A stretch of 63,977 nucleotides of DNA, filler included, from a bacterium (GTDB lineage: Bacteria; UBA9089; CG2-30-40-21; SBAY01): NCBI GenBank assembly GCA_040757115.1. It is 18 parts of 18 records of this genome, joined end to end, with 100 filler letters (N's around TTAATTAATTAA, not from the genome) between each part and the next. Parts side by side here need not be neighbours in the genome. Positions count along the whole stretch, not along the records: positions 1 to 24,480 come from JBFLYA010000038.1; 17 more parts are not named here. One strand, written 5' to 3'. Positions 1 through 19,614 of this stretch are shown here, piece by piece. Made by a program: the position numbers and the translations under genes. The notes below the pieces were generated by a model. The model made no database searches and was not told where the DNA came from. It saw nothing but the letters and a program-made list of their open reading frames with translations. Positions within the stretch are counted from its first letter, which is position 1, and the number at the start of each line of letters is the position of its first letter.

Positions 1-28
1 CGCGTATTGATTTCTCGCTCATTTGTAC

Positions 29-160
29 TCCTAACGATAAAGTTCAGGTGCGGCGGGGAGAATTACCACAAAAGTTTGATAGCAAGATAAAACTTTGAGA
101 GACCACAAAACTCTGACCACGGCACAGCCCCCCGCCGTCAACTGCAACACAGGGTTAGAC
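29..160 (-). repeat. attC-like recombination site (copy 1 of 3, 132 bp)
   Basis: Minus strand reads R'' GTCTAAC, L'' GTTGCAG ... L' CTGAAC, R' GTTAGGA with GGCGGGG/CCCCGCC inner stem; near-identical to 6496-6627 and similar to 8607-8738. Confidence 0.75.
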
Positions 161-287
161 AAAAGCTTTGACTCGCTGTCTTTTCCTTTTCCTCTGCCTC
201 ACCGAATTATTGTGCATTCCACATTCACGGCCAGAATAGTTCCTTTGAGGAAAATTACTTGGAAAGGACCTCTTGGCTCTCGTTTTA

Positions 288-316
288 ATTTTATCAATAA
301 TTAGCTATTATGTCAA
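288..316 (-). promoter_or_regulatory. sigma70 promoter pointing into attC copy 1
   Basis: TTGACA-17 bp-TAAAAT with extended -10 TG on the minus strand. Confidence 0.6.
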
Positions 317-416
317 GACTTTTATCCGAACATATGAATGAGTAACTAACCCCTTGAAATTGCTATATGTTTGGGGAAAGGGGAAGTCGTATCCAATTTT
401 ACTCTAAAGAAAAAAT

Positions 417-1712
417 TTAAAAAAGTGCTTGACTTTTATATGGTAGTCTGACCCTAACTCTCCTTTTCCCGTTTTTAAGGTGCGATCCCTCAACTCCATC
501 TTGCCCCTTTAGTCGCGGGATATCCTCCTGCTCTATGCTCTGTACCATCTCCTCAACGGTCGAAGATATAGCTCTCACGATGTGACTGAAAAGATCTTGT
601 CTGAAAGTACACCAGGGATTTCTTCCGTTGGAGTGACTCTGTGCAAACCAATTTTCAAACCGGCAACCGCCACCGCAAAGAAAGAACCATCTGCACGAGG
701 TGCATTTTGAGGATGGAAGAGAGAGATTTTTCCTGGTCGCCACAACCTTCGGTTGCATCAGTATTGTGTCGATCCCTTGTGACTTCACTTTACCCAGAGC
801 GAAATCAGGCACACCCAAGAAGCGAGCACAAGGATAGACAGTGCCATCGCGGTCAATACCTGTAATGATTCCGCAACCATGTTGAGCAAATGTACAGTCC
901 GAAGGACTACCCCCTAATAATCTCTCGATGATACCAACGAAAGTCCTCACAGGGATCCGTCCATCAAACTCGCCGTACCAAAGGTCAAATGCTCTTTTGA
1001 AGAAGTGCAGAAGTTGCCTGGAAGATGGAATGAAAGTGGAGGAGCCAAGTCGGTCACTACATATGCTAAAGTCAAACCCATACGGCGCCGCTTCGGTCAG
1101 AAAAGAGTAAACGGTCTCAGGATAATCAGCATTAATTTGAGATACAACACAGATAACTCCATATGGCAATCCAACATCTTGGCACAAGCGAAGCTTGTCC
1201 ATCACCACATCAAATGTCCCACGCCCGTTTGGGAATCTGCGGAGACGGTCATGAAATTCCCTTGGCCCGTCAAGGCTTGTGCTTAGTTGGAAGTCATAAT
1301 GCTTGAGCCATTTCGCCATTTTCTTGCTCAATAGCGTCAGATTTGTCTGGATGTGGTTGATTACTTTGGTCCCCTCCGTCGACGCAAAACGCTCTTGGAA
1401 CTTCGCCACTCTTGAGAAGAAATCCTGTCCAGCGAGCAAAGGTTCTCCGCCGTGCCATGTATACTGAACGACTCTGGCTGAGTTCACTGTGGTAGCGATT
1501 ACATTCGTCAAGATTTCCTCACTCATCACGTCAAAAGCGCGTGTACGATGACGGATATCTGCATGATAACAATAAGAGCACGCGAGATTGCAACACGCAC
1601 CAACAGGAGCTATAGTGAAAATGGCCTTCTCCGGCCTTTCATCCATATGACTTCTGTCAATAGGTTGCGAGCCTATCACGTGATGCATCATATTATTGGC
1701 TCTTGATTTCAT
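417..1712 (-). CDS. Radical SAM/SPASM-domain protein (anSME-like fold; probable peptide maturase); start uncertain
   Basis: CNLACSYC cluster motif, WHGGEPLL, SLDGP, SPASM cysteines (C..GC..YPC..CTSCRWFFLCGGGC..WC); overlaps an upstream small ORF; no sulfatase nearby. Confidence 0.9.
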   Translation of the reverse strand: MKSRANNMMHHVIGSQPIDRSHMDERPEKAIFTIAPVGACCNLACSYCYHADIRHRTRAFDVMSEEILTNVIATTVNSARVVQYTWHGGEPLLAGQDFFSRVAKFQERFASTEGTKVINHIQTNLTLLSKKMAKWLKHYDFQLSTSLDGPREFHDRLRRFPNGRGTFDVVMDKLRLCQDVGLPYGVICVVSQINADYPETVYSFLTEAAPYGFDFSICSDRLGSSTFIPSSRQLLHFFKRAFDLWYGEFDGRIPVRTFVGIIERLLGGSPSDCTFAQHGCGIITGIDRDGTVYPCARFLGVPDFALGKVKSQGIDTILMQPKVVATRKNLSLPSSKCTSCRWFFLCGGGCRFENWFAQSHSNGRNPWCTFRQDLFSHIVRAISSTVEEMVQSIEQEDIPRLKGQDGVEGSHLKNGKRRVRVRLPYKSQALF

Positions 1713-1896
1713 TCAGTTTTCGGACAAGCACCTTCAAGTCGTCCACAAGAGATACATTACCTTGCTTCACTGGCGTTGATTGAAAAGCGATATCTGTGCA
1801 TTTGACGTCACAGTGGTACGAGATCCGAGATTCCCTTTGATCTTTTACACGGCTAAGGATGAACTCAACTGCTACTTGGCCAGTAACTTTGCTCAT
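1693..1896 (-). CDS. Candidate RiPP precursor peptide, 67 aa
   Basis: Strong AGGAGG RBS before ATG at 1896; immediately upstream of the rSAM/SPASM gene; central SYHCDVKCTD motif. Confidence 0.6.
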   Translation of the reverse strand: MSKVTGQVAVEFILSRVKDQRESRISYHCDVKCTDIAFQSTPVKQGNVSLVDDLKVLVRKLNEIKSQ

Positions 1897-2075
1897 GTTC
1901 ACCTCCTTTTCTGTTTTGAATGCTCGCGGATAAAATTGAGTATTGATTTTATTGGTGTTCACACACCTCGAACCTTCTCTTCACCCCAAGACCTCCCCAA
2001 AATTCACTCCTTTTCTATAACCAATCCTTATTCCTATCATTGCTCATGATTTTCTAATCGGATAGGTCGAAAAGT

Positions 2076-2635
2076 TTAAATCATTTCTCGTTTTCTCTGT
2101 TCGACTAATGCTCTTGCTTTTTCAGGGTTTGTGCTATTTGATGACTCAGAGACTACTACGCCCTTTGGGCTGATATATCTTATCCACCAAATACCATCAC
2201 GCTCAAACACACATTCAAATTTTATCTGCATAATTAGAGATACACCAGCTTCTTTAAGTTTATGCACTAAATTTACAATCAGCGATTTTTCAACCACATC
2301 AACTTCAAGTGATTCAATTAAATTTGCTGATATGTTTACAATATCGCTTTTGTCATCAGATTTAATTACTTCATGCATTTTTGATGTTAAAACAATACCA
2401 TACTCATCTTCTATTATCATTTCAATGGCATATATAAGCTTGTCTTCTTTAATTCGGATCCCTTTAGTTGCGGGCTTAAGTAGAAGACGGAACAGATTTT
2501 AGTGGGGTATATCAGATATAATATGTCCAGTACCTCCTTATACTTTCTTCCCCCAGAAACTTCTATATATAACCCAATCATTTTTTTAGCATCTAATCCA
2601 TCAATATTGTCAAATAGGCTTCTCATCTTTACCAA
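2076..2635 (-). pseudogene. Hypothetical protein (about 186 aa) split by a probable 1-nt frameshift near 2497-2500
   Basis: ORFs 2417..2635 and 2076..2420; the downstream frame is open back to 2498, and adding one A in ACTAAAATC fuses them (..YPTKNLFRLLLKPATKG..). Confidence 0.55.
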
Positions 2636-2641
2636 ACACTC

Positions 2642-4063
2642 CTAACTCTTTTGGTCTAGCAATTGTTTGATTTCTTCTATAAGTTTTTCACTGTTAACTG
2701 TTTTCTGTCCTATCTGAGCTTTTAGCCATTCCTCCCGTTTTTCAATCTTTTCTGTTTCTTTTTTAAGCACTCTTAAGTCCTTGATTGTAACTTCGTTGTT
2801 TGAAAACTCCTCAGGACCAATAATAACAGCTATCGGAATTGAACATTTATCGGCATATTCAAGTTGTTTACCTATCTTTTGTTCTTTTCCAATATAAACC
2901 TCTGTATTTATGCCTTCTTCTCTGAGACGATGCCCAATTTTCATATATTCAACCATCTTTTCCTTTACCATAACCGTGATAAAAACGTTAGCCACAGAGG
3001 GTCTGCTTTCAGATGGAGCACATTTCTTCATCGCATCAAAAATACGGTCAACCCCTATAGACGCACCTGTGGCTGGAATTTCTTTACCGAGAAATTGTCC
3101 AATTAACTGGTCAAAACGCCCACCACCCATTACACTGCCAAACTCTCTTGCATCAAGAAGAATTGCTTCATAGACAGGTCCAGTATAATAGTCAAGCCCT
3201 CGTGCTATGCTCAAATCAATAGTAACTTTATCATCAGGAATTTCCAGAGCAGATAGATATTTATTAATTTCTTCTAACTCTCTTATTCCTTTATCTGCAG
3301 TAGAAACTCCTTTGAAAAACTCTGTCACTGAAGTTATAGCTTCATTTCGGGTATTCTGAGGAAGTAAAAGGAATTCTTCAATTTTCAATATCTGGTTCAC
3401 CTCAAGGTTAAGACCTTTTATCTCATCCCCTGAACTATCAATTCTCCCTGCCCCTAATTCTTGCTTTACTGCTTCGAGTCCTTGTTTTTCCAATTTATCA
3501 ATGACTTTAAATACAGAATGGCTCGGTTCTACAGGAATGTCTGCATATTTAATTAAACTATCTATAATCTTTCTATTGTTACATCTTATCCGAAAATCAG
3601 TTAATCCCAGAGCATTGAGGGAATCATACATAGCTAATATTATTTCTACATCAGCTATCATCTCACTCGTGCCAACAATATCAATATCAAATTGGATAAA
3701 TTCCCGAAATCGGCCAGGATCAGGTTTATCACATCTCCACACAGGTTGAACCTGATATCTTTTAAATGGCTTAGGAAGTTGTGGATATTGAGCAATAACT
3801 CGTGAAAGAGGAACTGTTAAATCAAATCTTAGACCGACCTCATTTCCATCTTTATCAGTAAAGGTATACATTTGCTTATTAATTTCTTCTCCTCCAAGAC
3901 CTAGTAAAGTTTCTTTGTATTCAAGAGCAGGAGTTGCAAGTGGAACAAAGCCATATAATTCATATACTTTTTTAATAGTGGAGAGTATTTGGTCCCGCAC
4001 ACGCATTTCTTCAGGCATATAATCACGAAAACCCCGTAACGTTTTAATAACTCTACTACTCAT
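2642..4063 (-). CDS. hisS: Histidine--tRNA ligase, Caulobacter/Rhizobiales-like subtype
   Basis: RGFRDY, LRFDLTVP, GRFREFIQFDID, ARGLDYYTG, GGGRFD, GASIGVDR; insert IDKLEKQGLEAVKQELGAGRIDSSGD; C-terminal IKDL..EEW..Q; GGAGG RBS. Confidence 0.95.
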   Translation of the reverse strand: MSSRVIKTLRGFRDYMPEEMRVRDQILSTIKKVYELYGFVPLATPALEYKETLLGLGGEEINKQMYTFTDKDGNEVGLRFDLTVPLSRVIAQYPQLPKPFKRYQVQPVWRCDKPDPGRFREFIQFDIDIVGTSEMIADVEIILAMYDSLNALGLTDFRIRCNNRKIIDSLIKYADIPVEPSHSVFKVIDKLEKQGLEAVKQELGAGRIDSSGDEIKGLNLEVNQILKIEEFLLLPQNTRNEAITSVTEFFKGVSTADKGIRELEEINKYLSALEIPDDKVTIDLSIARGLDYYTGPVYEAILLDAREFGSVMGGGRFDQLIGQFLGKEIPATGASIGVDRIFDAMKKCAPSESRPSVANVFITVMVKEKMVEYMKIGHRLREEGINTEVYIGKEQKIGKQLEYADKCSIPIAVIIGPEEFSNNEVTIKDLRVLKKETEKIEKREEWLKAQIGQKTVNSEKLIEEIKQLLDQKS

Positions 4064-4082
4064 TTTTTTACCTCCAAAAATT

Positions 4083-4159
4083 TGGTACCGGCGATGGGAT
4101 TCGAACCCATACCTTCTGATCCACAGTCAGACACTCTAACCAGTTGGAGCTACGCCGGC
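4083..4159 (-). tRNA. tRNA-His(GUG), 77 nt, encoded CCA, no G-1, G1:U72, A73
   Basis: Cloverleaf GCCGGCG-TA-GCTC..GAGT-G-TCTGA CTGTGGA TCAGA-AGGT-ATGGG TTCGAAT CCCAT-CGCCGGT-A-CCA; position -1 is T. Confidence 0.95.
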
Positions 4160-4214
4160 ATTTACTGCCAACTCACCATATTACATTCTATTTTGTATCA
4201 CTTTAAGTACTTTT

Positions 4215-5102
4215 TTAAGGTACGAACTTGTTCAGTGAATACTCAATAAAGTTAAAAGCCCAACCTCTTGTTTTTAGACTCGAAATTAAATTAGAAACAT
4301 CTTTACCATTAACAACGACATCAACTATATACCACCCTTTTTCTGTAATAAATGGTAAAATAACTTGTGGATATTCTTGGGGAAGTATCCTTCGAACTTT
4401 CTCTATATTTTCATTTTTAACAACCATTTTTAGTCCCACCATTTCCTCAGCACGAAGAGCGGCATTAAGAAAAAGAATTATATTATCTATTTTTTTCTTT
4501 TTCCATTCATTCCTCCATGAATCTTTGTTTACAATAACCTGTACATTTGATTCAAGAATTGTTTCAATTTCAATGAGATTATTAGCTCTTAATGATGCAC
4601 CTGTCTCTGTAACCTCCACAATGGCATCTGCAAGATAAGGTGGTTTTACTTCCGTTGCACCCCATGAGAAATCTACCGTTGCCTCAACGCCTTTAGTCTT
4701 AAGGTATCGTTTTGTGAACTCAACAAGTTCAGTAGCAATACGTTTGCCTTGGATGTCCTTTATTGACTTTATATCTGAACTCGATGGAACTGCAATAACC
4801 CATCTCACGGACTTGAAACCTTCCTTTGCATATTTCAAATCTGCAACTGTTTCTACATCTACATTTTGTTCAAGAACCCAGTCATAACCTGTAAGTCCAC
4901 AATCAAGATGGCCATCCTCAACGTATTTTGGCATCTCCTGTGCTCTAACAAGCATTGATTCTATCTCAGGATCATCAAAAGTAGGGTAATAGGAACGATT
5001 AGATATATTTATATGATAACCTGCCTTTTTGAATAGCCTTAATGTCGACTCCTGAAGACTTCCCTTAGGAAGACCAATCTTAAGTACATTGTTACTCTCC
5101 AT
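4215..5102 (-). CDS. hisG: ATP phosphoribosyltransferase, long form
   Basis: [50 protein letters not shown]-terminal ACT-like domain present but divergent. Confidence 0.93.
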
Positions 5103-5141
5103 ACATATTCACTCTCCACAAAGATAATTTTAATTTCAAAT

Positions 5142-5171
5142 ATAATAGCATATAGAATATCTAAAAGTCAA
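5142..5171 (-). promoter_or_regulatory. Putative sigma70 promoter for hisG-tRNA-hisS
   Basis: TTGACT-18 bp-TATTAT with TGn extended -10, about 40 bp upstream of hisG. Confidence 0.45.
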
Positions 5172-5204
5172 GAACTTTTTTCAGAAATTTCCCTACAACG
5201 ACAC

Positions 5205-6344
5205 TTAGCAACTTCTCATACAATATATTGTAGCCCATTCATATTTATAGTGCTGTATTCCTATAGCTTGAATAAGGTTATACAATTTAACCGCAACAGG
5301 CATGCCATGAAAATGTCCTACACTGATAATATTGATAAATTTATTATCTTCGGTATTTGGGAAAATTAAAGGATTATCCGTAACACTGTTTGTCTCAACT
5401 TCAAGAGCTCTACGGGTTTCCTCTATTAAATCATAACATGTACCCAATATTTGAGCGGCACATCGAATGTTATAAGGATCCTGAACCTCACCATCAATAT
5501 CAAAATCAGAATGAGCTTTGCGAATCGGAGAATCTTTCATCAGTTCCCAAACCCATTTGGAAACTTTCAATGCCCCTCGATGAGGTCTCAATTCATGAAA
5601 CTCAGGATTAAAACAGGTATCAGCCCCAAGCATAACCTGTGTAGAAATGGCTGTTATAACCGTTGCACTTTTCAGGATGTCTATCATCTTAAAATAAGCT
5701 AATATACCAAAGGCGGTGGAATATTGTACACCGTTATTTAATGCTAATCCTTCTTTCATTTCTAAAGAAATTGGAGTGAATACATTATTTGCTTTTTTTC
5801 GGTCTTTGTCTGATCCAACAAAAACATCGCCTTCGCCTATCATTGCCAGTGCAATATGAGACATGGGAGCAAGATCGCCACTGGCACCTACAGAACCGAA
5901 TTTAGGAACTACTGGAGTAATTTTTTTGTTCAGCATCTCAATAAGTTTTTTTATAACTTCGGGACGGACTCCGCTGTACCCTTGTGATAAGGATATGACA
6001 CGTAAAAACATCGCAGCTCTAACAACTTCTATAGGTGTAACATCTCCAACGCCACATGAATGGGAACGAATAAGATTATTCTGAAGTTCAGAATACCTTT
6101 GTTGAGGAACCGGAATATCAACATTATGCCCGAATCCGCGATTAAATCCATAGGCAGGTTTTGGATTCTTTATTATTTCATCTATTACATCTTTTCGTCT
6201 TTTTTCAATAATATCAAGTGCTTTGGAATCTATCTCAATTTCACTTCCATACGCTACTCGCCAAACATCATCTAATGAAACCTTTTCTAATATCCTCTTA
6301 TCTCTTACTTCTTCCGCTATAGCTTTAATATATACTTTATCCAT
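5205..6344 (-). CDS. hutH: MIO-dependent aromatic amino acid ammonia-lyase (histidine ammonia-lyase-like), C-terminally truncated
   Basis: GSVGASGDLAP (MIO), LIRSH, KEGLALNNG, RPHRG, VQDPY, NSVTDNP; 379 aa versus about 500 typical; GAGGAGG RBS. Confidence 0.7.
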   Translation of the reverse strand: MDKVYIKAIAEEVRDKRILEKVSLDDVWRVAYGSEIEIDSKALDIIEKRRKDVIDEIIKNPKPAYGFNRGFGHNVDIPVPQQRYSELQNNLIRSHSCGVGDVTPIEVVRAAMFLRVISLSQGYSGVRPEVIKKLIEMLNKKITPVVPKFGSVGASGDLAPMSHIALAMIGEGDVFVGSDKDRKKANNVFTPISLEMKEGLALNNGVQYSTAFGILAYFKMIDILKSATVITAISTQVMLGADTCFNPEFHELRPHRGALKVSKWVWELMKDSPIRKAHSDFDIDGEVQDPYNIRCAAQILGTCYDLIEETRRALEVETNSVTDNPLIFPNTEDNKFINIISVGHFHGMPVAVKLYNLIQAIGIQHYKYEWATIYCMRSC

Positions 6345-6362
6345 AATTATCCTCCTCTCGTA

Positions 6363-6455
6363 GTTGGGTAGGATTCTGGTGCGGTTTGGTTTTATGCCCT
6401 CGTTTCCAGAGTCCCCCTAAAATTCCGTGCATTAGGTTTTCTCCAACACGGCTTT
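6363..6455 (-). ncRNA. Group II intron 3' relic (domains V-VI only)
   Basis: AAGCCGTGTTGGAGAAAACCTAATGCACGGAATTTTAGGGGG (DV) followed by a CTGG..CCAG hairpin ending CCTACCCAAC. Confidence 0.65.
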
Positions 6456-6495
6456 AAGTAATAGGCATTTATCTATTCAATCAATGTCTTTCTCA

Positions 6496-6627
6496 TCCTA
6501 ACGATAGAGTTCAGGTGCGGCGGGGAGAATTACCACAAAAGTTTGATAGCAAGATAAAACTTTGAGAGACTACAAAACTCTGTCCACGGTACAGTCCCCC
6601 GCCGTCAACTGCAACGCAGGGTTAGAC
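6496..6627 (-). repeat. attC-like site (copy 2); identity with copy 1 extends about 70 bp further to about 6697
   Basis: GTCTAAC..GTTGCAG..CTGAAC..GTTAGGA on the minus strand, 132 bp. Confidence 0.75.
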
Positions 6628-6838
6628 AAAAGCTTTGATTCGCTGTCTTTTCCTTTTCCTCTGCCTTACCGAATTATTGTGCATTCCACATTTACGGTTT
6701 GGTATAATACTTTTATATTTCAAAGATATTAAAAAAGATTTATAAAAAGTCATCCAGACTACCTGATATATGATATAATAGAAAAGGGTTGTCTTTTTAG
6801 ACATTGCCCCAAACATTTATCTAAAGGAGGTAGTCCGG

Positions 6839-7996
6839 ATGAAAAAGATTCATAACAAACAAAAAAGGAAAAAAGTCAAAACCCACATTCAGAAACCTAA
6901 AGGCAGCAGGTTTACTGAAGAGGTCAAACAACTTGAACCTCAAAATGTGGGCGTTATTCCCATCGATGTCCATAAGGATAAACATCAGATTCTTATTTGT
7001 GATTACTACGGTAAAATCCTTAAGGACGAGTTCTCTATACCTAACACCTTAACCGGTGTTCAGGTTCTCTTAACTCATATCTGTGAGGTAATAGACAAAT
7101 TTAATCTCAAAAAGGTCTATGCGGTTATGGAATATACCGGCAAATATCATCAGAATTTGGCTAATAAATTACGACAACACAAAATCTCTGTTGTTTTTGT
7201 TCTCCCCAATAGCACTTACCATCTCCGTCAAGGACAGATGAATTGGGCTAAAACAGACTCTATTGATTTGTGTGCCATTGGCCAAGCATTTGTTAATGGT
7301 TGGGTATCCTCTTGCCCTCCTCTTGATGATTTCTATCAAAACTGGCAAACACTAACCCGAGCCAGACGCGATGAGGTTAATCTTCAAACTCAAGCCAAAA
7401 ACAGAATTACTGACCTCTTACACGACTTAATGCCAGGATGCCAAGAATTGTTTGCTAACTTCTGGGAACATAATGCTCCACCTGTCCTTCTATCCCTTGC
7501 TCATTCTCCAGAACAACTCCTTAACCTCAATCGCATCACCTTAATTCAACAACTCTCAAAAGCAAAAGTCCAAAAACCAGCAGAGCTCGTTGACAAACTC
7601 CATATCTGGGCTAAAAACTCTCTTGGTACATCCTCAAATCCCTCAGCCAAAATCCAGCAGCTCAAAATCCTTTGGCAACACTTCCTTAACTATCAGAACA
7701 ATATTCGTTCCTATAATATCTCCATTGCCCAATATCTGTCTCAAAATCCAGCTCTCCTCTTCCTCTCCATCCCCTGGGTAAATGTCCCCAGTGCCAGTGA
7801 ATATGCCTCTGAAATAGGACCATTTGACAACTTTACCTCTCCTAAACAAATTACCGCTTATCTTGGTCTGGCTCCTAAAAAGTTTCAGACAGGTAAGATT
7901 TCCTTTGAAAATGGCCCTATTACCAGAAAGGGTAAAAATCGTGGTCGAGCTGACCCCTACTCCCCTCCTACTCCTCACACAGATTTCAAGGTTTAA
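6839..7996 (+). mobile_element. IS110-family transposase, probably C-terminally truncated
   Basis: IDVHKD, MEYTGKY, KTDSID (DEDD RuvC domain); SIPWVN, AYLGLAP..QTG..ITRKG, then an abrupt end. Confidence 0.85.
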
Positions 7997-8002
7997 TTCC
8001 TA

Positions 8003-8311
8003 TTATGCTCCAGATTGAACACGGCGAGCAGATAACCAGCTATTAAGTGACTTTTGGCTCTCGCCACTGTGCCGTCCCGCTATCAATCCATCAATACCAA
8101 TATGTTCGTCAAGGTCAGGCCACTCAATTGCATATCCATCTCCCAATAATTGCCAGTTTTGCCGCTCACTTGGTGAAGCATAGAATAATCGTGGATACCA
8201 GGCAAGTGGGACAACAATACGCCGTCCATCTGTCAGGTCCACTACCAATTCCTCATCTGTTACTGTGACTCCTATCGCTATAGGTTCTACTTCAAGCACC
8301 AAAGTATTCAT
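8003..8311 (-). CDS. DUF2442 family protein (putative TA component)
   Basis: LTDGRRIVVPLAWYPRL, IEWPDLDEHI; GGAGG RBS; overlaps the DUF4160 gene. Confidence 0.85.
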   Translation of the reverse strand: MNTLVLEVEPIAIGVTVTDEELVVDLTDGRRIVVPLAWYPRLFYASPSERQNWQLLGDGYAIEWPDLDEHIGIDGLIAGRHSGESQKSLNSWLSARRVQSGA

Positions 8312-8528
8312 ACCACGCCTCCAAAAGAGTTGATTCATGCTCTACTACAAGACGAGCAATCTGATTTAGTTCGTGTCCAGGAAAACCCCGGTTTTTCACC
8401 AAGGAAACAGGAGTTATCCAAAACTTGGCGATTCGACGGTCCCGCTTTACATGAATATGGGGTGGTTCACCCTTATCGGAACTAAAGAAAACAAATCTAT
8501 ATGGGCCATCTTCGAGAACAGTTGGCAT
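8292..8528 (-). CDS. DUF4160 family protein (putative TA component)
   Basis: MPTVL..GPYRFVFFS..EPPHIHV..AKFW..EAWYEYFG. Confidence 0.85.
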   Translation of the reverse strand: MPTVLEDGPYRFVFFSSDKGEPPHIHVKRDRRIAKFWITPVSLVKNRGFPGHELNQIARLVVEHESTLLEAWYEYFGA

Positions 8529-8606
8529 AATCGCCTCTCCTTATATCTCTTGTATAATAAGTTTTACTGGTTAATTTCCAAGTGATAACAGGTTGTCACT
8601 ACTATG

Positions 8607-8738
8607 GGCTAACGATAAAGTTCAGGTGCGGCGGGGAGGATTGCCACTAAACTTTGTAAGCAAGACAAAACTTTGATAAACCACAAACTTTTGAAAAACA
8701 GTTAGCCCCCCGCCGTCCACTGCAACGCCTGGTTAGGT
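8607..8738 (-). repeat. attC-like site (copy 3, 132 bp)
   Basis: ACCTAAC..GTTGCAG..CTGAAC..GTTAGCC on the minus strand; same length and stem as copies 1-2. Confidence 0.75.
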
Positions 8739-8848
8739 ATAATACTTCTCACTGCAATTCTCTTTTCTTCCCTTGCCGGAGAACTATTGTCCATTCCATA
8801 ATCAAGTTTAACCCTAAATCTCTCTCATTTATTCTAACAACTCTTGCT

Positions 8849-10111
8849 TCAGTCGCAGTGAACGAAACGAACAGTTGTCTGCAAGTGTTTGCTATCTGAT
8901 TTTGTAGATTCCTTGTTGGTTTCATATTTTATTAATTTACTTAATCTATCTTTAGTTGCTTTTTCTATCTTAGAAGCATCAGTGTCATTAAATTTAATTT
9001 TATAATGTTCAGCAATTTTCTTTAGAATAGAGTTATCCATTTCTTTAAAAACCTTATTTGTTTTAATAGCATATAAGACATAAAGTTTTTTGTTTTGCTG
9101 GACATCTTCTATGTTGATAAGGGGGGATAAGTTCCCATACAACCACGCATTTTCAGGATTGAACAGATTTTTCAGTGCATAAAGATAGGAATATTTATAA
9201 AGATTCTCCAATGTCACCACAATTCCGTTGGGATGCTCTCTTGTCATAAAAGAGGCATTTTTCTTTAAAGAATTAATATCTCTAAATGAGTAATAATACA
9301 AACCAATAGGAGATTTCTGAACATCATTTTTGCGCGGAGGATATTTATTGATATATCCGTCAGTAGTTTTAAAATCGGATAAAACAAATGTGTTGGGACT
9401 GCCTAATATATTAAATCTGAAATTCCTGATATAATCAAATGTCATTCCATCTGAACATTTTTCATAAAGAGATACTAATATCGGAAATTTTCCTATTCCT
9501 GTTCCATGGAACAATGCGCTGGAAAATATTTCGCCTTTTATTAGTTTGTAGTTATCCTTAAAATCTCGCAATCTCTTAAAATTAGTCTCTTTTATTAAAT
9601 ATGATAGCGGATGCAGCACACAAACAATATCAGCATTGAGTTTATGATATGATTTTAAGAATGAAACCCCTATATCTCTATCGTATAAGTCTTCATCGCA
9701 TATATTTTGCCCCTTCTCGCCGTTTCTGAATTCTGATGTTGTATCGTTGTAAGGAGGATTGCCTACCATTATTAAAAATGCAGAGGAAGAAATTAAATAT
9801 TTATCTCTATTAACTCCCTTTAACGAATTTGTCTGAAAAATATTATGTTGATTAAAATGTTGCTTGAGAAACTGGCAGGCTTTTAAATCACAATCCGCTA
9901 TCCGATAATTATAATTTTTGAGACCAAATATAAAAGCCCCACACCCCCCGGCACTATCAAAAACAATACACTTTTTTCCTATGTCCCTTAAGTAAGGGAT
10001 TATAAATTCATGAACCTGTTTGACAAGGACATCAGGAGTATAGTAACTGCCTAATTGAATTCTTTCATTTTTTGTTAGGTGTTCTGCTAAATGTGCTTGC
10101 ATAATTATCAC
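8849..10111 (-). CDS. N6-adenine DNA methyltransferase
   Basis: GSYYTP, FDSAGGCGAF (motif I), GNPPY (motif IV). Confidence 0.85.
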   Translation of the reverse strand: MIIMQAHLAEHLTKNERIQLGSYYTPDVLVKQVHEFIIPYLRDIGKKCIVFDSAGGCGAFIFGLKNYNYRIADCDLKACQFLKQHFNQHNIFQTNSLKGVNRDKYLISSSAFLIMVGNPPYNDTTSEFRNGEKGQNICDEDLYDRDIGVSFLKSYHKLNADIVCVLHPLSYLIKETNFKRLRDFKDNYKLIKGEIFSSALFHGTGIGKFPILVSLYEKCSDGMTFDYIRNFRFNILGSPNTFVLSDFKTTDGYINKYPPRKNDVQKSPIGLYYYSFRDINSLKKNASFMTREHPNGIVVTLENLYKYSYLYALKNLFNPENAWLYGNLSPLINIEDVQQNKKLYVLYAIKTNKVFKEMDNSILKKIAEHYKIKFNDTDASKIEKATKDRLSKLIKYETNKESTKSDSKHLQTTVRFVHCD

Positions 10112-10857
10112 CTGCTGATAATCTCAAGAAGTATTTTAAGGATTTCAACAACATCATGATTGTGCCGTTTGGATGCCATTCCAAAAACCTTCATCATACA
10201 TATAAGATTTGAGATATTGGCATTGCTGATTACATATTCAAGTTTATCAGTAGGAACAGATGATTTACCAAGGAGGATTGAATAATTCCTAAATGATTTT
10301 AATGGTATGCAAAAATAAACCATTGGTTGAACACCAGTAGCATATTGTTGTTTTTGAATAGATATTTCTACTTGTGTTCCATCTAAAGTTTCAATCATAA
10401 ACAGTGTCGGCAAATTAATACTCGTTTCTTCAAAATTTATTCCATTTATAGTTAACTGTGAATGGTGTTCAACGGTTATGGCTTTTTCATCTATAAAACT
10501 TTTGTAATTACTTATTTCCTTAAGCAGGTTTTGGATTTCTTCTATAGAGACAAATTTTAATTCCATAGCCTTATAAAATATTTCCGATAATTCATAAGGA
10601 TATTTTGTTTTTCCGTTACTTCCAATAAAATGCTTGTTTGTTAATTTTGTTCCTTTTTTGCCTGCTTCAACATCGTTAATAGGGACATCATAACCTATTT
10701 GCCATTCCAAGTATGTTTGGTCATCAAAAGTCCCTTCTCTTGTCGAAAAGGTTTCACCAAAATCTAATCTATTTTGTCTTTTCTTAAATCTGAATTTGCC
10801 GGCATTAGTAGCGGGGATAGTTAATAAAATATTGTTTTCTTTAATTGCATAATCCAT
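10108..10857 (-). CDS. R.PabI-family restriction enzyme (HALFPIPE DNA glycosylase)
   Basis: GKFRFK, FSTR, YLEWQIGYD, YELSE, QYATGVQPM motifs; lies between two MTases. Confidence 0.8.
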   Translation of the reverse strand: MDYAIKENNILLTIPATNAGKFRFKKRQNRLDFGETFSTREGTFDDQTYLEWQIGYDVPINDVEAGKKGTKLTNKHFIGSNGKTKYPYELSEIFYKAMELKFVSIEEIQNLLKEISNYKSFIDEKAITVEHHSQLTINGINFEETSINLPTLFMIETLDGTQVEISIQKQQYATGVQPMVYFCIPLKSFRNYSILLGKSSVPTDKLEYVISNANISNLICMMKVFGMASKRHNHDVVEILKILLEIISR

Positions 10858-10868
10858 TTTTTATCTCC

Positions 10869-11591
10869 CTATTTTATGGTATTTCTTGATTCTTTTATAG
10901 CTGTTCTCAATGCCCATTGGATTCTTTCAAGAGCAATTTTATAATATTTTTCTTCAATTTCAAAACCAATAAATCTTCTATTAAGCTGAAGACAGGCTAC
11001 GGCAGTGCTACCGCTTCCTATGAAAGGATCCAAAATTAAGTCATTCTCTTTTGTGAACATTTTTAATATCTCTTTTATAAAGTGTTTGGGTTTCGGTGTC
11101 GGATGGTCTATATATCCTTCATCAGGTTCAACCATTTTTCCTGGGGTGTCAACAAATATATCTTTATTCCAGCGAATAATTTTAGGTTTTCCTTTTTTAA
11201 AGATAAAACAAGACATAAATTTAGTCAGGCCGATTGGAGATTTAACCCTTCCTTCAGGACAATACAAGATAATCTGCCAGAAATAATTAAATGGATTGTT
11301 CTCAAATAGTCGTGGCAAAAACTTTGTGCTAAAGAATGTAATAAAAAAACTATTGTCTTTTAGAATCCTGTTGCATTCTGAAAGGACATTATAAAAAAGA
11401 CTTAAATCAGCATCGCCTCTGATAGCATCTTTTCTTAATCCATATGGTGGGTCAGTAAGCACGACATCTATCGAATTGTTTGGAATTAATCTTATCAGTT
11501 CCAAACAATTTCCACAAATTATGTTATCAATAAAATCTTCGGGATATTTAAGGTCAAATTTAATTATATTGCTGTTTTTTACCATTTTCAT
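10869..11591 (-). CDS. Beta-class N4/N6 DNA methyltransferase
   Basis: TDPPY, HPTPKP, LDPFIGSGST. Confidence 0.9.
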   Translation of the reverse strand: MKMVKNSNIIKFDLKYPEDFIDNIICGNCLELIRLIPNNSIDVVLTDPPYGLRKDAIRGDADLSLFYNVLSECNRILKDNSFFITFFSTKFLPRLFENNPFNYFWQIILYCPEGRVKSPIGLTKFMSCFIFKKGKPKIIRWNKDIFVDTPGKMVEPDEGYIDHPTPKPKHFIKEILKMFTKENDLILDPFIGSGSTAVACLQLNRRFIGFEIEEKYYKIALERIQWALRTAIKESRNTIK

Positions 11592-11635
11592 TTTAGTTCT
11601 TAATCCTTCACATTTGTAGCCTAACCATGGATTAC

Positions 11636-11723
11636 ATTCGACCCTTTCAGGGTCGAGTTTTGCGGGCGTTTATTTCCGTAGATTGCATCTACGGTTATTT
11701 AAAATTCGACGCTTTCAGCGTCA
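11636..11723. repeat. REP-like palindrome pair
   Basis: ATTCGACCCTTTCAGGGTCGA and ATTCGACGCTTTCAGCGTC. Confidence 0.5.
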
Positions 11724-11953
11724 ATAACCTAAAACCTAACCGCACAGGTCGCAATTTTTCTAATCTTCTAATCTCTAATTCACTAATTCACTAATTCGCT
11801 CATAAATCAATCGGCTCTATGTCAAATTTCGGTTAATAAGTGCTATAAGCGTTCAAGTAGTGTAAGAAAAGGAGAGTGAAAAATGAGGGGTGAAGAATGA
11901 GCAGTAACCATCTGAGTGTTGACACCTGATGGCTGAACGCTTACAACAATTTA

Positions 11954-13420
11954 TTATCCTTTAACCACACCAAGTGGTCTTAATTTAGCTACTCGTCTGG
12001 CGATGCCGGCATTATGAAGGACACTAACTACCTGTGTAACATCCTTATATGCCTCAGGCATTTCTTCGGCTAATGTTTCTCTTCCAGCGGACCGAACCAA
12101 TATTCCTTTAATTTTTAATTCTTCATCGATTGCCCTGCCGCGAGCCTGGTTTATGGCGGCGGTTCTTGAAAGCACTCTGCCGGCACCATGACAGGCAGTG
12201 CCAAATGCCTCTTCCATACCCAGTGCAGTCCCAATTAAAACATAAGAAGCTGTCCCCATATCCCCGGGCACAATCACTGGTTGACCTACACATTTGTAAT
12301 CTTCAGGTAAGACAGGATGATTAGCCGGAAATGCCCGTGTTGCACCTTTGCGGTGGACACAAAGTTTAATCTTTTTGCCAGCAACATTATGTTCCTCAAT
12401 TTTACCAATATTATGTGCAACATCATAGACTAATTCCATGCCTAATTCGGATAGTTTCATCCCCAATACCTGCTTAAATACTTCTCTGGTTAAGTGCATC
12501 AAGCATTGTCTATTTGCCCAGGCGTAATTTGCGGCCGCGGACATTGCTCCAAAATAAGCTTTACCTTCCGGCGAATTAAATGGAGCACATGCCAGCTGCC
12601 TATCGGGTAAAAATATCCCATATTTTCTTACCGCGTCACCCATTGAGTGTAAATAATCTTCACAGACCTGGTAACCCAGTCCTCTTGACCCGGAATGAAT
12701 CATAGTGGTAATTTGTCCTTCTTGTAGTCCAAATACCTTTGCCACTGCCGAGTCATAAATTTTCTCTACTACCTGAACCTCTAAAAAATGATTGCCAGAA
12801 CCTAATGTGCCCAGTTGTGCCAGCCCTCGTTCCATTGCTTTATGACTAATCCTATCCGGAGCCGCCATTGCCAGACATCCTTCTTCTTCGGTATGAGATA
12901 AATCCTCATTTATCCCATATCCTTTTGAAACAGCCCATTTTGACCCATTAATTAAAACATCTACCTCTTCTTTAGGTGAGAGTTTAATCATTCCTTTTGA
13001 GCCTAATCCGGATGGTATGTTATGAAATAAACTATTAATTAATATTGAAAGTTTAGCCTGAATATCTATCAGAGAGAGATTAGTTCGGACCAATCTTACC
13101 CCACAATTAATATCCGAGCCAACTCCACCTGGTGAGATAACACCGCCCTGCTCAATATCTGTTGCGGCAACACCGCCAATTGGCAAGCCATAACCCCAAT
13201 GAATATCAGGCATAGCTAATGAGTATTTAACTATACCTGGCAAACAGGCAACATTTGCAACCTGCACTGGCGTATTATCTTTTTTAATATGGCTAATCAT
13301 CGAGTCATCTGCATATATTAATCCTGGAACTTGCATCTCTCGCCGATAACTTTTCGGGATTCGATAACGATAATCATCAATTTTTTCTAAGGGTCCTTGA
13401 TAACCAACTCCTTGTGACAT
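11954..13420 (-). CDS. rtcB: RNA-splicing/repair ligase RtcB
   Basis: MPDIHWGYG, DINCGVR, GSGNHF, HSGSRG, HRKGAT, HGAGR, EEMPEAYKD. Confidence 0.95.
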   Translation of the reverse strand: MSQGVGYQGPLEKIDDYRYRIPKSYRREMQVPGLIYADDSMISHIKKDNTPVQVANVACLPGIVKYSLAMPDIHWGYGLPIGGVAATDIEQGGVISPGGVGSDINCGVRLVRTNLSLIDIQAKLSILINSLFHNIPSGLGSKGMIKLSPKEEVDVLINGSKWAVSKGYGINEDLSHTEEEGCLAMAAPDRISHKAMERGLAQLGTLGSGNHFLEVQVVEKIYDSAVAKVFGLQEGQITTMIHSGSRGLGYQVCEDYLHSMGDAVRKYGIFLPDRQLACAPFNSPEGKAYFGAMSAAANYAWANRQCLMHLTREVFKQVLGMKLSELGMELVYDVAHNIGKIEEHNVAGKKIKLCVHRKGATRAFPANHPVLPEDYKCVGQPVIVPGDMGTASYVLIGTALGMEEAFGTACHGAGRVLSRTAAINQARGRAIDEELKIKGILVRSAGRETLAEEMPEAYKDVTQVVSVLHNAGIARRVAKLRPLGVVKG

Positions 13421-13645
13421 CTTTATGTTTACCTCCTTTTATCAGAAGAACGCTCTCGGATAAAATTAAGCGGTAATTTTATTAGCCTTCGCACACCGCA
13501 AATTTTTCCTTCACCCCCACTTTTTAAGTAGAGAGTAGAAAGTAGAGAGTAGAGAGTAGGAATTTTGTTTTATTTACTTCCTATTTCCCGTTTCTTACTT
13601 CCTATTTTTATCCGAGAGGCTTCCAGAATAACTGCCTTCTATCTT

Positions 13646-14713
13646 CTACCATGTTTGCTGATTAGATTTAATATAATTTAACCATCGACCTGTCAATTCT
13701 GGCAGGCTTTTAATCTCTGGTGAATAGGCATTTTCTAATGCCTTATTTAACTCCATACCTTCCTTTAAATTCTTGCAAAAGGCATAAAGTTTTCCTCTTC
13801 CATGCACATCTATCAGGTAAGTTACGATACTTAAAGATTCGGTGTACCACAGATGGATAATCTCAATTTTATTCTGTTGTGAGATGTCAATCGCGGTAAG
13901 TTGGTCAGCAGTGAAATATTTTCCTCCTCTTATCTGGTCAAGTATCTCTTGATAATTATTTATGTATGTTTTGCAAAACTTATTCTCTTCATACACGGCT
14001 AATCCCTCGGCAAGCCATTTAGGGAAATTGGGGCTAAATTCCATAAAGTCAGCGAAGATTAAATGAGTTAATTCATGAGGAATAACGGCATCAATTAGGT
14101 TTTCGGCATCTTTATGGGAGTAAATTGAGCGGGTTTTAAATTCACTGTATCCAGATGACCAGGTAGCTTTACCTGTCGCCTTAAAATAATCCTCCGGGGT
14201 ATCAAAAACATAAATAGTAACCTTATCCTTTAACCAGAATCCAGCATCACCAAATCCTAAATCTGTTGGTATATCGTAATAGATTTCTACTTTAGCTACA
14301 ATATCATCCGCTAAAATTGCATCACTGGTATAAATGATAAAGTGGGATGTCTCTCTTTTAACAGCTAATTGATATGCTGGTTGTGTAGTAGCAGTACTAA
14401 ATTCAGAATTTATTTCCGCAGAAGATAACCTGTCAACTGGCACTTTAGTTCTTCTATACATTTCTTCTCGTTTCGTAACGCTATTAATTGCCCAGCAGGC
14501 GACGACAATAATCACGATTAAAGATAACCAGACATCTAATCCTATCCATCTTTTCCATCCTCTTCCCTCACGATGCCTATGCATAATCATATATCTTTCT
14601 TCTTCAGGACTTACATCAGCCTTTTTAGATGATTCCTTTCGAAATACCGCATGGCATAGATTACAAAATAATGCTTCATCTGGATTGTTATAACCACATT
14701 TTGGACATTGCAT
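13646..14713 (-). CDS. Zinc-ribbon + TM + peptidase MA-like metallohydrolase
   Basis: N-terminal CPKC..FCNLC, one TM helix, HELTH..WLAEGLA. Confidence 0.75.
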   Translation of the reverse strand: MQCPKCGYNNPDEALFCNLCHAVFRKESSKKADVSPEEERYMIMHRHREGRGWKRWIGLDVWLSLIVIIVVACWAINSVTKREEMYRRTKVPVDRLSSAEINSEFSTATTQPAYQLAVKRETSHFIIYTSDAILADDIVAKVEIYYDIPTDLGFGDAGFWLKDKVTIYVFDTPEDYFKATGKATWSSGYSEFKTRSIYSHKDAENLIDAVIPHELTHLIFADFMEFSPNFPKWLAEGLAVYEENKFCKTYINNYQEILDQIRGGKYFTADQLTAIDISQQNKIEIIHLWYTESLSIVTYLIDVHGRGKLYAFCKNLKEGMELNKALENAYSPEIKSLPELTGRWLNYIKSNQQTW

Positions 14714-14785
14714 TTCATTATTCCTCTTTATACTTCATCATCCAGGACTTTTAAAGATTTGTCAAGTGGATGACCCAGAATTTTC

Positions 14786-14985
14786 GGTGGTGTCTGAAAA
14801 TAACGCTAATAGTGAAATCTATGCAGATTTGGTGTCCAAAAGGGGATAAGGAAATAAAGGGAGATATGGAGATTATTCATTGTAATTTGCAAAATTTTAG
14901 AATGAATTTATCTCCTTATCTCCATAATCCCCATATCTCCTTTTCTTACACTATTTCAACCTTTATGCTAGATTAAGACACCACC
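14786..14985. mobile_element. MITE with GGTGGTGTCT termini and 8-bp target duplication GAATTTTC (related copy 22279-22634)
   Basis: GGTGGTGTCT..AGACACCACC flanked by GAATTTTC on both sides; supplies the stop codon of the GT39 gene. Confidence 0.7.
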
Positions 14986-16739: not shown

Positions 16740-16821
16740 TTTAATATCTCCCTTATGTTTGGTAACTGGTAACTGGTAATTAGTTACCAATCACCAGTTA
16801 CTAATTACCCCATTAACTCTT

Positions 16822-17763
16822 CTAATCAAAAATCCCTTTTCTCGTTAATGCCTGGATAAATCTATTAATTATAGGCAATCTTGACACTTTAATTGATTTT
16901 ATCGCCTCTTCTTCCTTTATCATTACTTCCATCTCTATTTCTTGTAATTTATGAATATAGTTAGTCAAATACTCATCTTCCTTACCTTCACCTCTCTCCA
17001 CAAAGACCTGTAACTTTTCTAATTCATCTTTATCGAGCCAGATACCGTGATTTTTTCTACAGTGGTCAATTATCACTCCTGAGGTATAGCTATAATTTAC
17101 CCGTTCCATTAGATGTCCACAAATGGGACAGAGAAGAGTATCAACTAATTCATGGGGACGTGAGATTTTAGCGTCTTCTTTGTTTGCGGTTATTTCGGGA
17201 AAATGCTCTTGAGTGAACTTTTTCTCTCTGATTTTGAGTATTTGATAGAGTTCATCGCTATCACACCAGATACCACCGCAAATTTTACATATATCAGTTT
17301 TTACGCCTTCGTAATCTATCTCCATTAATTGCTTATGACATCGAGGGCAATCTTTTGTTCCTAATAAAACATCCTTCTCATGAGTCTGCTCTATTCTTTC
17401 TAATGAATTATCATGTTCTTCCATAACTATCTGAATCTTTTCTAACTCACCTTGATTAAACCATAATCCATCTTTTTGAGGACATCGGTCGAGTATAACC
17501 CCAGTATTAATGGCGTAATTAAACTTTTGCATCTGTGAACCACATTTAGGGCAGTTATGGATTTTACCTTTTCCTGCATCTACTCCAATAGACTGAAAGG
17601 TAGTAATTCTTTCTTCTTCACTAAAAGGTGTTTGTCTTCTATCTATTATGGGGCTTAATTCTCCATAATCTAACCAATTCCCGCCGCAGTTATTACAGGA
17701 ATCAATCACTATCCCTTCATACTCCCTTTCTACTAATTCTGAATGACACTCTGGACAAATCAT
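16822..17763 (-). CDS. Protein with four TFIIB-type zinc-finger (zf-TFIIB) repeats
   Basis: Four CPxC..IDxCxxCxG(I/N/L)W(L/F/C)DxxEL units. Confidence 0.8.
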   Translation of the reverse strand: MICPECHSELVEREYEGIVIDSCNNCGGNWLDYGELSPIIDRRQTPFSEEERITTFQSIGVDAGKGKIHNCPKCGSQMQKFNYAINTGVILDRCPQKDGLWFNQGELEKIQIVMEEHDNSLERIEQTHEKDVLLGTKDCPRCHKQLMEIDYEGVKTDICKICGGIWCDSDELYQILKIREKKFTQEHFPEITANKEDAKISRPHELVDTLLCPICGHLMERVNYSYTSGVIIDHCRKNHGIWLDKDELEKLQVFVERGEGKEDEYLTNYIHKLQEIEMEVMIKEEEAIKSIKVSRLPIINRFIQALTRKGIFD

Positions 17764-18370
17764 TTTTTATGCCTCCTTTTTTGCTATAGTTTCGTGATTT
17801 TTAGAAGATTGAAATCCCCTGAAAACACAAGGAAGAGGAATTATTGCAAAGTTATGGCTAAACCATGAGTTGCAAAAAATAGTGAGTGAATTACAAAATT
17901 CCAAATCACAAATTCCAAATTACAAATAAATTCCAATGACCAAAAATCAAAATTCCAAACAAAAGAAGGAGAAGTGCTTTTCAATGAGGCAATAGAATTA
18001 AAGAAAAGTTATATTCCCCTCTTGAGAGGGGTTAGAGGTGTGTCCTTCAATTATTGAAAAACCTAAATCTGACATTATTGAGCAAAATATTCAACTCCCT
18101 TTAACAAAATTGATAAAGCAATAGGTTTTGGAATTTGGTGCTTGGAATTTATTTGGAATTTGTTATTTGAAATTTGGAATTTATATTGCAAGGTTATGGT
18201 TAAACCATGATGAATAAATTCACGAAACTCCAGTTTTTGGTAATTTGGTAACTAAATTACCAGTGACTAATTATCATTCACCAATGTCCTTATCTCTTAT
18301 AATCTTCTGCTATACGCAGGTTAATACAATTTTGGATTTTCGATTGGATAACTCCAAAATCAAAAGTGAC

Positions 18371-19516: not shown

Positions 19517-19614
19517 TTTATTATAACTATACTAAATTTTTTGCTTTTTGTCAAGTATAGTTTCGTGAATTTTTCCACCTGTGCAGTCGTAGGCTGTTAA
19601 ATTAAGTTAAACAT

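Follow-up and report, generated by a model that had tools for sequence, protein, structure and literature searches.

We have analysed a stretch of DNA of 63,977 nt from assembly GCA_040757115.1 (hereafter the window, meaning the whole stretch, in whose numbering positions are given) and found that a tRNA-His gene lacking the near-universal additional guanosine at position -1 (G-1) stands directly ahead of a gene for a histidyl-tRNA synthetase (HisRS) of the type known from Caulobacter. This observation, made in the original prediction from the sequence alone, is confirmed. The host is an uncultivated groundwater bacterium. We consider it likely that the two genes form a functional pair of what we call the extended HisRS lineage and that they were acquired as a linked unit. 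More generally, this rule-breaking pair appears to move between distant bacteria with its two genes joined.

The tRNA-His gene is the sole tRNA gene that ARAGORN finds in the window; its anticodon is GTG, and it matches the Rfam tRNA model RF00005 at 65.1 bits (gathering score 29, E = 5.5e-14). Read on the minus strand (...AAT, then GCCGGCG UA ... CGCCGGU A CCA), it has T at position -1, A73 as discriminator, a gene-encoded CCA end, and an acceptor stem of seven pairs that includes G1:U72 and C3:G70 (GCCGGCG with CGCCGGU). Since only seven bases precede U8, G-1 cannot be read from the gene. The anticodon GUG, T at -1, G1:U72 and A73 are thus as predicted, all read directly and with ARAGORN and Rfam in agreement, and the further claim that this is the identity set of an alphaproteobacterial clade also stands, because the excerpts available of PMC3064791 give the same set for the tRNA-His of the RRCH clade (no G-1, G1:U72, A73, C3:G70). 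The D-loop, CAACUGGUUA, is enlarged to 10 bases and ends in GGUUA, with two U after the GG; the published RRCH length is nine bases, with an extra U20a (PMC3064791, in part), and D-loops of related G-1-less-type tRNAs have 7-10 bases. The distance to hisS, predicted at about 20 bp, was measured as 19 nt (the CCA ends at 4083 and the ATG is at 4063).

The product of the adjacent gene (P0001) scores 391.9 bits on the TIGR00442 hisS equivalog (cut-off 286.75) and has the Pfam domains tRNA-synt_His and HGTP_anticodon. In the motif-2 loop, the PQ-xGR of canonical enzymes gives way to KPD-PGRFREF. There are also two inserts, one in the insertion domain (approximately residues 203-217) and one of about 19 aa in the anticodon-binding domain (approximately 437-455), both of which align with those of the HisRS of Cereibacter, Paracoccus, Sinorhizobium and Methylobacterium. 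As judged from the alignment, the window enzyme has three characters in common with the named enzymes of Rhodobacterales and Rhizobiales, i.e. the loss of the motif-2 Gln and the two inserts. The alignment has 77 rows: the window, six fetched loci (Cereibacter sphaeroides, Paracoccus versutus, Sinorhizobium meliloti, Methylobacterium bullatum, Parabacteroides distasonis and Vescimonas fastidiosa) and 70 other HisRS. Characters were counted in 62 of them. All 21 non-extended rows keep the Gln of P-Q-x-G-R, whereas in all 41 extended ones D, G, A or N stands in its place, in nearly every case before a Pro. The insertion-domain insert (G-x-G-R-x-D-x-S-G-D-x-I-x-G) is present in 41/41 extended rows, and that of the anticodon domain (E-x-R-E-E-W-L-K-x-R-x-G-Q-x-T-V, about 19 residues) in 41/41 extended rows versus 0/21 others. 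Alphaproteobacterial rows have Gly in motif 2 (KPG-PGRF), and the window has Asp instead. In the consulted parts of the literature, the change from Gln to Gly at the residue that contacts G-1:C73 is the published RRCH change (PMC3937112), and an insert unique among class IIa anticodon-binding domains is described as the likely basis of anticodon reading by the Caulobacter HisRS (PMC3064791).

The clade insert predicted in the HisRS, DKLEKQGLEAVKQELGAGRIDSSGDEIKG, is indeed there, at residues 189-217, and aligns with the RRCH enzymes. The second predicted motif, IKDLRVLKKETEKIEKREEWLKAQIGQ, is present too, but it is no terminal extension: it belongs to the insert of about 19 residues that lies within the last part of the anticodon-binding domain, because the last helix re-aligns past it. 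In a tblastn search of plasmid and chromid records, the best matches were hisS of Rhodobacterales and Rhizobiales (36-39% identity), and these alone aligned to the end of the query (residues 469-473), whereas those of Bacteroidota, Bacillota and others stopped near residue 430. The nearest solved structures are 6nhi, 3net and the human cytoplasmic HisRS, with the Escherichia coli, Thermus and Staphylococcus enzymes far more distant.

Relationships among these enzymes were assessed with a quick tree of the 77 rows and a careful IQ-TREE analysis of 46 rows (LG+C20+F+G4 by posterior mean site frequencies, PMSF; support given as ultrafast bootstrap / SH-aLRT), and the two were concordant. The extended HisRS form a single clade (92/90), and together with their sister, two rows of deltaproteobacterial type in which the Gln is kept (L075 and L101), they are supported at 100/95; the window thus groups with the RRCH enzymes, as the original prediction had it. 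Three groups make up the extended clade. One consists of Hydrogenedentota and a Nitrospiraceae bin. Another (100/100) holds Phycisphaerae and Planctomycetota rows, one Blastocatellia row, and a monophyletic alphaproteobacterial clade (100/99) with Cereibacter, Paracoccus, Sinorhizobium, Methylobacterium, Rhizomicrobium, one alphaproteobacterial bin and one Pelagibacteraceae bin. The group of the window (86/95) carries the labels Acidobacteriota, Zixibacteria, TA06, WOR-3, Ignavibacteriota, Chitinophagales and Bacteroidetes. Within it, the window falls in a five-row clade (100/100) with a metagenome protein (P0002, 87% identical), P0003, and the enzymes of genomes G004 and G022, which are sisters (100/97). 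It lies outside the alphaproteobacterial subclade. Because the alphaproteobacterial enzymes are, in this tree, one nested branch of a multi-phylum bacterial radiation, the window HisRS is a relative and no descendant of the Caulobacter-type enzymes, and the ranking of the solved structures is in keeping with this. The prediction of a Caulobacter-type pair outside Alphaproteobacteria consequently holds for the type of the pair and fails for an alphaproteobacterial origin of the enzyme, which sits in a sister subclade.

We then compared enzyme type with tRNA type, for which tRNA-His genes were gathered from the flanks of hisS and with a genome-wide tRNA-His covariance model (R1), confirmed with ARAGORN, and put in register by script. 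A tRNA-His was seen in 21 genomes with an extended HisRS: the window, G004, G013, G020, G021, G022, and 15 further loci or genomes (L044, L045, L046, L047, L048, L050, L051, L052, L054, L055, L056, L057, L060, L100 and L103). U72 and A73 occur in every one of them, G1 in 20/21 (the genome of L046 has U1), and a base other than G at -1 in 20/21 (18 T, 1 A, 1 C; L047 has G). The 17 genomes that lack an extended HisRS and in which a tRNA-His was seen (G001, G003, G006, G009, G010, G012, G014, G015, G017, G018, G023, G024, the archaeon L097, and the genomes of L091, L092, L101 and L105) all have G-1, G1:C72 and C73; they include G024, which has no HisRS match of any type and a canonical tRNA-His. 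HisRS type and tRNA-His type thus covary without exception. Moreover, since the enzyme of L101, from the sister group of the extended clade, comes with a canonical tRNA, a single branch takes the switch in tRNA type together with the loss of the Gln and the acquisition of the anticodon-domain insert. Genome-wide searches of 13 extended-type genomes gave the G-1-less type as the sole kind of tRNA-His among the loci examined. No tRNA-His was found in G005, whose contig starts 107 nt before hisS, and none was among the top R1 matches of G046 (the genome of L075), G002, G007, G008, G011, G016 and G019.

Some of these genes are unusual in their own right. The tRNA-His of the L046 genome (L194 in G054) combines a U1-U72 mismatch with A73, which may reflect a variant form, faulty assembly or decay of the gene. 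That of L047 (3855-3929) has G1:U72 and A73, yet a G at -1 opposite A73, which is a eukaryote-like configuration. The Blastocatellia genome of L100 has 29 tRNA genes in about 3 kb (L197, G051:C97), including a second tRNA-His of the G-1-less type (T-1, G1:U72, A73). In L100 itself the extended hisS has an extra insert of about 65 aa and is directly followed (5731-7257) by a second HisRS-like gene of 508 aa, with an anticodon-binding domain and with Arg in place of the motif-2 Gln, which may be HisZ-like.

The host was predicted to be other than alphaproteobacterial, which agrees with our finding that its relatives form a separate small phylum, of which 24 genomes were compared. The literature restricts the RRCH type to Rhodobacterales, Rhizobiales, Caulobacterales, Hyphomonadaceae and SAR11, and the host belongs to none of these. 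The window is chromosomal, with genes for RtcB, tyrosyl-tRNA synthetase (TyrRS), formate-tetrahydrofolate ligase (FTHFS), a SurA-like isomerase, BacA and other housekeeping functions, and these are 94-99% identical in DNA to the nearest genome, G001, where they spread over many small contigs. The proteins (TyrRS 97%, FTHFS 98% identical) indicate relatedness at the level of species. G001 has no DNA matching window positions 1-7976 save dispersed repeats (19-230; 6498-6720 at 83%); its only HisRS match is 30% identical to that of the window and keeps the Gln, and its tRNA-His has G-1:C73. Across the phylum, the extended type occurs in 6/24 genomes, in three families (2/5 in f1, 1/3 in f8 and 3/4 in f4), and the type switches within genera: in g7, G013 and G021 have the extended enzyme and the G-1-less tRNA and G018 is canonical, and in g13, G022 is extended and G023 and G024 are canonical. 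The HisRS of G022, from another family, is 73% identical to that of the window, as much as that of same-family G004 (73%) and slightly more than that of G005 (71%), whereas TyrRS identities to the window are 79-81% within the family and 57-59% across families; G022 itself gave no TyrRS match, and its genus mate G024 stands at 59%. The extended enzymes of the phylum also occupy three places in the tree, i.e. the clade of the window, G020, and G013/G021 beside a Chitinophagales-labelled row. These conflicts between tree and identities point to lateral transfer of the pair within the phylum and into it. NCBI lists a protein identical to the HisRS of G004 under the name 'Nitrospirota bacterium'.

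The canonical HisRS of G001 and G003 (L001 and L040) is a peculiarity of another kind: it forms a separate type on a very long branch (length 2.34), unlike the E. coli-like type usual in the phylum. The family of the window therefore holds two foreign-looking HisRS types.

Genetic linkage is a recurrent trait of the extended lineage. In 11 of the 21 extended genomes, including the Pelagibacteraceae bin, hisS has the tRNA-His directly upstream of it on the same strand, and among 80 named loci an adjacent tRNA-His was found at 7/22 of extended type versus 1/58 of the others, the one being the archaeon. The order hisG, tRNA-His, hisS is shared by the window and G021 (HisG 45% identical), and G022 has hisG next to tRNA-His with hisS elsewhere in the genome. 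The spacer of 19 nt and the lack of a terminator-like site on the minus strand from hisG to hisS suggest that the tRNA and hisS of the window are co-transcribed. A promoter scan returned 16 sites, with 16.5 expected from shuffles, the best (5171-5142, minus strand) being ahead of hisG, and we claim no promoter. The predicted movement of the pair as a unit fits with this linkage, with the patchy distribution within genera, and with its absence from the nearest genome.

Does the window organism still have the canonical system? All sampled words of window 2642-6344 are present (share 1.00) in the groundwater metagenome run X1, its probable source. The same run has a contig of 1729 nt that covers L001 192-1844, i.e. 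the canonical hisS of G001 minus its last few codons, with 51 differences and one in-frame insertion of 3 nt (about 96.7% identity), a divergence that matches the one between window and G001 in shared genes (94-98% in DNA). X1 has no cover at L001 2332-2997, and runs X2 and X3 of the same study have next to nothing on either stretch, so that absence cannot be read from them. We think it fairly probable, at about two in three, that the canonical hisS is retained in the organism and that the cassette is a second system beside it, which is the simplest reading. In either case its family has canonical-only genomes (G001, G003), G-1-less-only genomes (G004, G005) and, probably, an intermediate in the window organism.

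These results can be assembled into a model in which hisG, tRNA-His and hisS constitute a self-contained cassette of histidine identity. With T at -1 facing A73, a G-1:C73 pair is impossible, and RNase P would be expected to cleave at +1, as the consulted sections of PMC3245924 report for tRNA-His without that pair, yielding a tRNA-His without G-1. This tRNA would be charged by the HisRS encoded 19 nt downstream, which, devoid of the motif-2 Gln and endowed with the anticodon-domain insert, may read the anticodon together with U72 and A73 by analogy with the Caulobacter enzyme. For the pair of C. crescentus, the only one with known biochemistry, the available excerpts of PMC3064791 (Yuan et al. 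2011) state that added G-1 is no help to charging, that anticodon mutants lose 91- to 1000-fold in efficiency, that U72 and A73 matter, and that E. coli tRNA-His is a >250-fold worse substrate. If such kinetics apply here, the window pair and a canonical pair would cross-react poorly. Since neither partner is expected to work well with a canonical partner, the enzyme would establish itself in a new host only together with its tRNA, and the frequent adjacency of the two genes could be explained by the persistence of those transfers that carried both. The cassette would have come by lateral transfer into this bacterium or its recent ancestors, and now lies in a strain-specific segment bordered by an insertion sequence (IS), most likely beside a resident canonical pair.

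Several points weigh against parts of this model. The support of the extended clade (92/90) is under the strong-support threshold of the tree tool, and many of the taxon labels come from metagenome bins, where mis-binning is possible. The genome-wide tRNA search took the top-scoring R1 loci of each genome, a range within which canonical tRNA-His fall at 76-90 bits. Motif 2 has Asp in the window and Gly in the RRCH enzymes, so that details of recognition may not be the same, and both the charging specificity and the mature 5' end are predictions. The GC content of the cassette (35-36%) is that of the rest of the window, so that composition gives no hint of a recent import; a pair that was older in the family and was then lost from G001 would account for the data about as well as a recent gain. 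Nor did mobile elements reveal a vehicle of the extended type: the best match in phage records is 34% identical and stops at residue 385, with none having the region of the C-terminal insert, viral contigs gave 2 loci, each 26% identical, and in plasmid records the extended type is found on alphaproteobacterial chromid-like replicons only.

The most serious of the other explanations is that the cassette has already replaced the canonical HisRS and tRNA-His, so that the window organism has a sole pair and the canonical hisS of the metagenome comes from a co-occurring sister strain. The extended type is the only HisRS match in all 6 genomes of the phylum that carry it, and one metagenome can contain several strains. 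Against this, X1 holds both all sampled words of the cassette and a near-complete canonical hisS about as close to that of G001 as other shared genes, and, given relatedness at the species level (TyrRS 97%, FTHFS 98%), a core gene of G001 is expected to be shared. We regard replacement as possible and clearly the less probable of the two states. It is also conceivable that the pair was ancestral to the family or the phylum and became patchy by repeated loss alone. The HisRS identities to G004 and G005 are not far under those of TyrRS, and the cassette has no GC anomaly, but vertical inheritance accounts poorly for an enzyme from another family (G022) that is as similar as those of the same family and sister to that of G004, for three separate places in the tree, for a canonical tRNA-His that is nearly identical in the 12/12 phylum genomes where it was seen, across seven families, and for the lack of the cassette in the nearest genome. 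We therefore think this explanation improbable and retain lateral acquisition of the linked pair.

Two further alternatives concern the tRNA itself. A Thg1-like enzyme might add G-1 after transcription, with the tRNA then used by a G-1-dependent synthetase; A73 with a G-1 added in this way is the eukaryotic arrangement, and the related tRNA of L047 does have G-1 opposite A73. Yet the Gln in contact with G-1:C73 is missing from the adjacent HisRS, and the archaeal-type Thg1, which is the bacterial kind, needs C73 according to the parts of PMC3245924 available to us. The presence of a Thg1-like gene, proposed as a check, was examined with PF04446 in five related genomes (G001, G004, G013, G020 and G022, 87-100% complete), where none was found although a Methanosarcina control was positive; this counts against later addition of G-1, which we deem very unlikely. 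Even less credit can be given to the idea that the tRNA-like gene mainly acts in cis as a leader or processing signal of hisS and does not decode: its position just ahead of the start codon, on the same strand and with no terminator-like site between, would suit such a role, but it has a full cloverleaf, an encoded CCA and a score of 65 bits, and in the 13 extended-type genomes mentioned above it is the only kind of tRNA-His among the loci examined and must therefore decode the His codons.

How does the pair compare with known systems? With the pair of Caulobacter crescentus and the other RRCH bacteria it has in common the lack of an encoded G-1, G1:U72, A73, C3:G70 and an enlarged D-loop on the side of the tRNA, and on the side of the enzyme the missing motif-2 Gln, the same two inserts, membership of the same clade and an alignment from end to end at 36-39% identity. 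It differs from it in that its host is not alphaproteobacterial, its enzyme belongs to a sister subclade with Asp in place of Gly in motif 2, its tRNA is joined to hisS in a hisG-tRNA-hisS cassette, and it probably coexists with a canonical pair. Among protists, both Trypanosoma brucei and Acanthamoeba castellanii charge a tRNA-His without G-1 by a non-canonical HisRS and have no Thg1, as stated in the excerpt seen of PMC9976931. That system differs by its separate eukaryotic origin and has no described gene linkage; as structural matches, the HisRS of T. cruzi and T. brucei (E ~5e-47) rank behind 6nhi, 3net and human HARS.

Other synthetase genes are known to travel. In pylT-pylS, a tRNA gene and its dedicated synthetase gene are adjacent and can move together as an orthogonal unit that suffices for itself. 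There, a stop codon comes to encode an additional amino acid, whereas the cassette of the window decodes ordinary His codons, which makes it redundant with the host system, and does not expand the code. Laterally acquired second copies of aminoacyl-tRNA synthetases give resistance to natural inhibitors of these enzymes while using the host tRNA. Like them, the window has a foreign-type extra synthetase gene in an accessory region, probably beside a housekeeping one; unlike them, its enzyme is accompanied by a tRNA of its own that has a different identity set, and no inhibitor gene cluster was recognised near the cassette.

The G-1-less tRNA-His/HisRS system is itself already known. The passages available of three reviews, the latest from 2023 (PMC3937112, PMC3245924, PMC9976931) confine the loss of G-1 from bacterial tRNA-His to one alphaproteobacterial clade, probably with a single origin, and a eukaryotic origin of the RRCH HisRS is under debate in those of PMC3937112 and PMC5370408. 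A search of full-text literature, which left out supplements, Wang 2007, and Ardell & Andersson 2006, gave no report of the system from other phyla. We found it in genomes labelled as at least eight non-alphaproteobacterial phyla; the pair is widespread and the window is not a unique case. What is new here is 1) the switching of the pair within genera, with perfect covariation of the tRNA, in one small phylum; 2) the hisG-tRNA-hisS cassette in a strain-specific segment; and 3) the evidence that a host may hold both identity systems. Because the alphaproteobacterial enzymes are nested in a wider diversity, the textbook case is recast as a capture from other bacteria. The broadest account is that two incompatible systems of histidine identity reside together in the window organism, which would be an identity swap in progress, that joining the two genes lets the rule cross phyla, and that the alphaproteobacterial system goes back to such a cassette captured from a different phylum of bacteria, and neither to eukaryotes nor to co-evolution in place; to all of this taken jointly we give an even chance. 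A host that probably has both systems would make it possible to test directly how a cell tolerates, and then resolves, two rules of identity for the same amino acid. The tRNA-hisS cassettes are naturally portable and presumably orthogonal pairs, of possible use in synthetic biology.

The features of the segment that holds the cassette are collected in the following table.

Features of the cassette and its surroundings in the window
Feature	Position	Strand	Basis
tRNA-His(GUG) gene, G-1-less type	4083..4159	-	ARAGORN, Rfam, scripted acceptor-stem register, direct reading
Spacer, tRNA 3' end to hisS start, 19 nt, GGAGG inside	4064..4082	-	Sequence
hisS, 473 aa (P0001), extended HisRS type	2642..4063	-	TIGR00442, Pfam, alignment with RRCH enzymes, trees
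hisG, long-form ATP phosphoribosyltransferase, 295 aa	4215..5102	-	TIGR00070 (185.2 bits) and HisG_C; 55 nt upstream of tRNA
hutH (histidine ammonia-lyase) fragment, 379 aa	5205..6344	-	Pfam Lyase_aromatic 2-334/466; TIGR01225 342.7 bits (cut-off 539)
IS110-family transposase bordering the segment	6839..7996	+	Pfam DEDD_Tnp_IS110 and Transposase_20
Radical SAM/SPASM maturase-like gene downstream of hisS	417..1712	-	Pfam and NCBIfam
Strain-specific segment holding the cassette	1..7976		BLAST of window 1-20000 against G001

The hisG of the window is 58% identical to that of G001 and is, relative to G001, a second, non-orthologous copy. The hutH fragment covers positions 7-342 of the 506 of its model, and its C-terminal third is missing where the hisG cassette starts. 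Three small open reading frames (2417-2635 and 2076-2420, between hisS and the radical SAM gene, and 1693-1962) have no Pfam or NCBIfam match and are not the missing part of hutH. Other genes of histidine metabolism neighbour the pair elsewhere: among Thermoanaerobaculia bins, two have a histidine ammonia-lyase-like gene after hisS and a third has the gene of an EgtD-like histidine methyltransferase ahead of the tRNA, hisD is near the pair in the Pelagibacteraceae bin, and hisZ follows hisS in Cereibacter. We claim no larger shared block beyond hisG-tRNA-hisS, the Thermoanaerobaculia lyase being only 32% identical to the hutH fragment of the window and the radical SAM/SPASM gene upstream of the tRNA in G004, a different one, only 23% identical to that of the window.

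Some observations on the rest of the window deserve mention. A dispersed repeat of about 200 bp (19-230, 14786-14990 and 19784-20000) has dozens of copies in G001, at 93-100% identity and often at contig ends; it looks like a miniature inverted-repeat transposable element (MITE) and probably explains the assembly of G001 in 770 contigs. A restriction-modification module at 8849-11591 (an R.Pab1-like endonuclease, an N6/N4 DNA methylase and an unassigned open reading frame of 420 aa) is absent from G001. The matches of the FTHFS gene (32218-34044) in G001, G002, G003, G005 and G008 include in-frame stops near their 5' end (1 TAA, or 1 TGA and 1 TAA), which probably mark a start placed upstream of the true one. 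The window further encodes a protein of 313 aa made of four TFIIB-type zinc ribbons (16822-17763), a fragment of a group II intron reverse transcriptase/maturase (37184-37930), and a pair of RAMP-family, CRISPR-associated genes (51070-53030).

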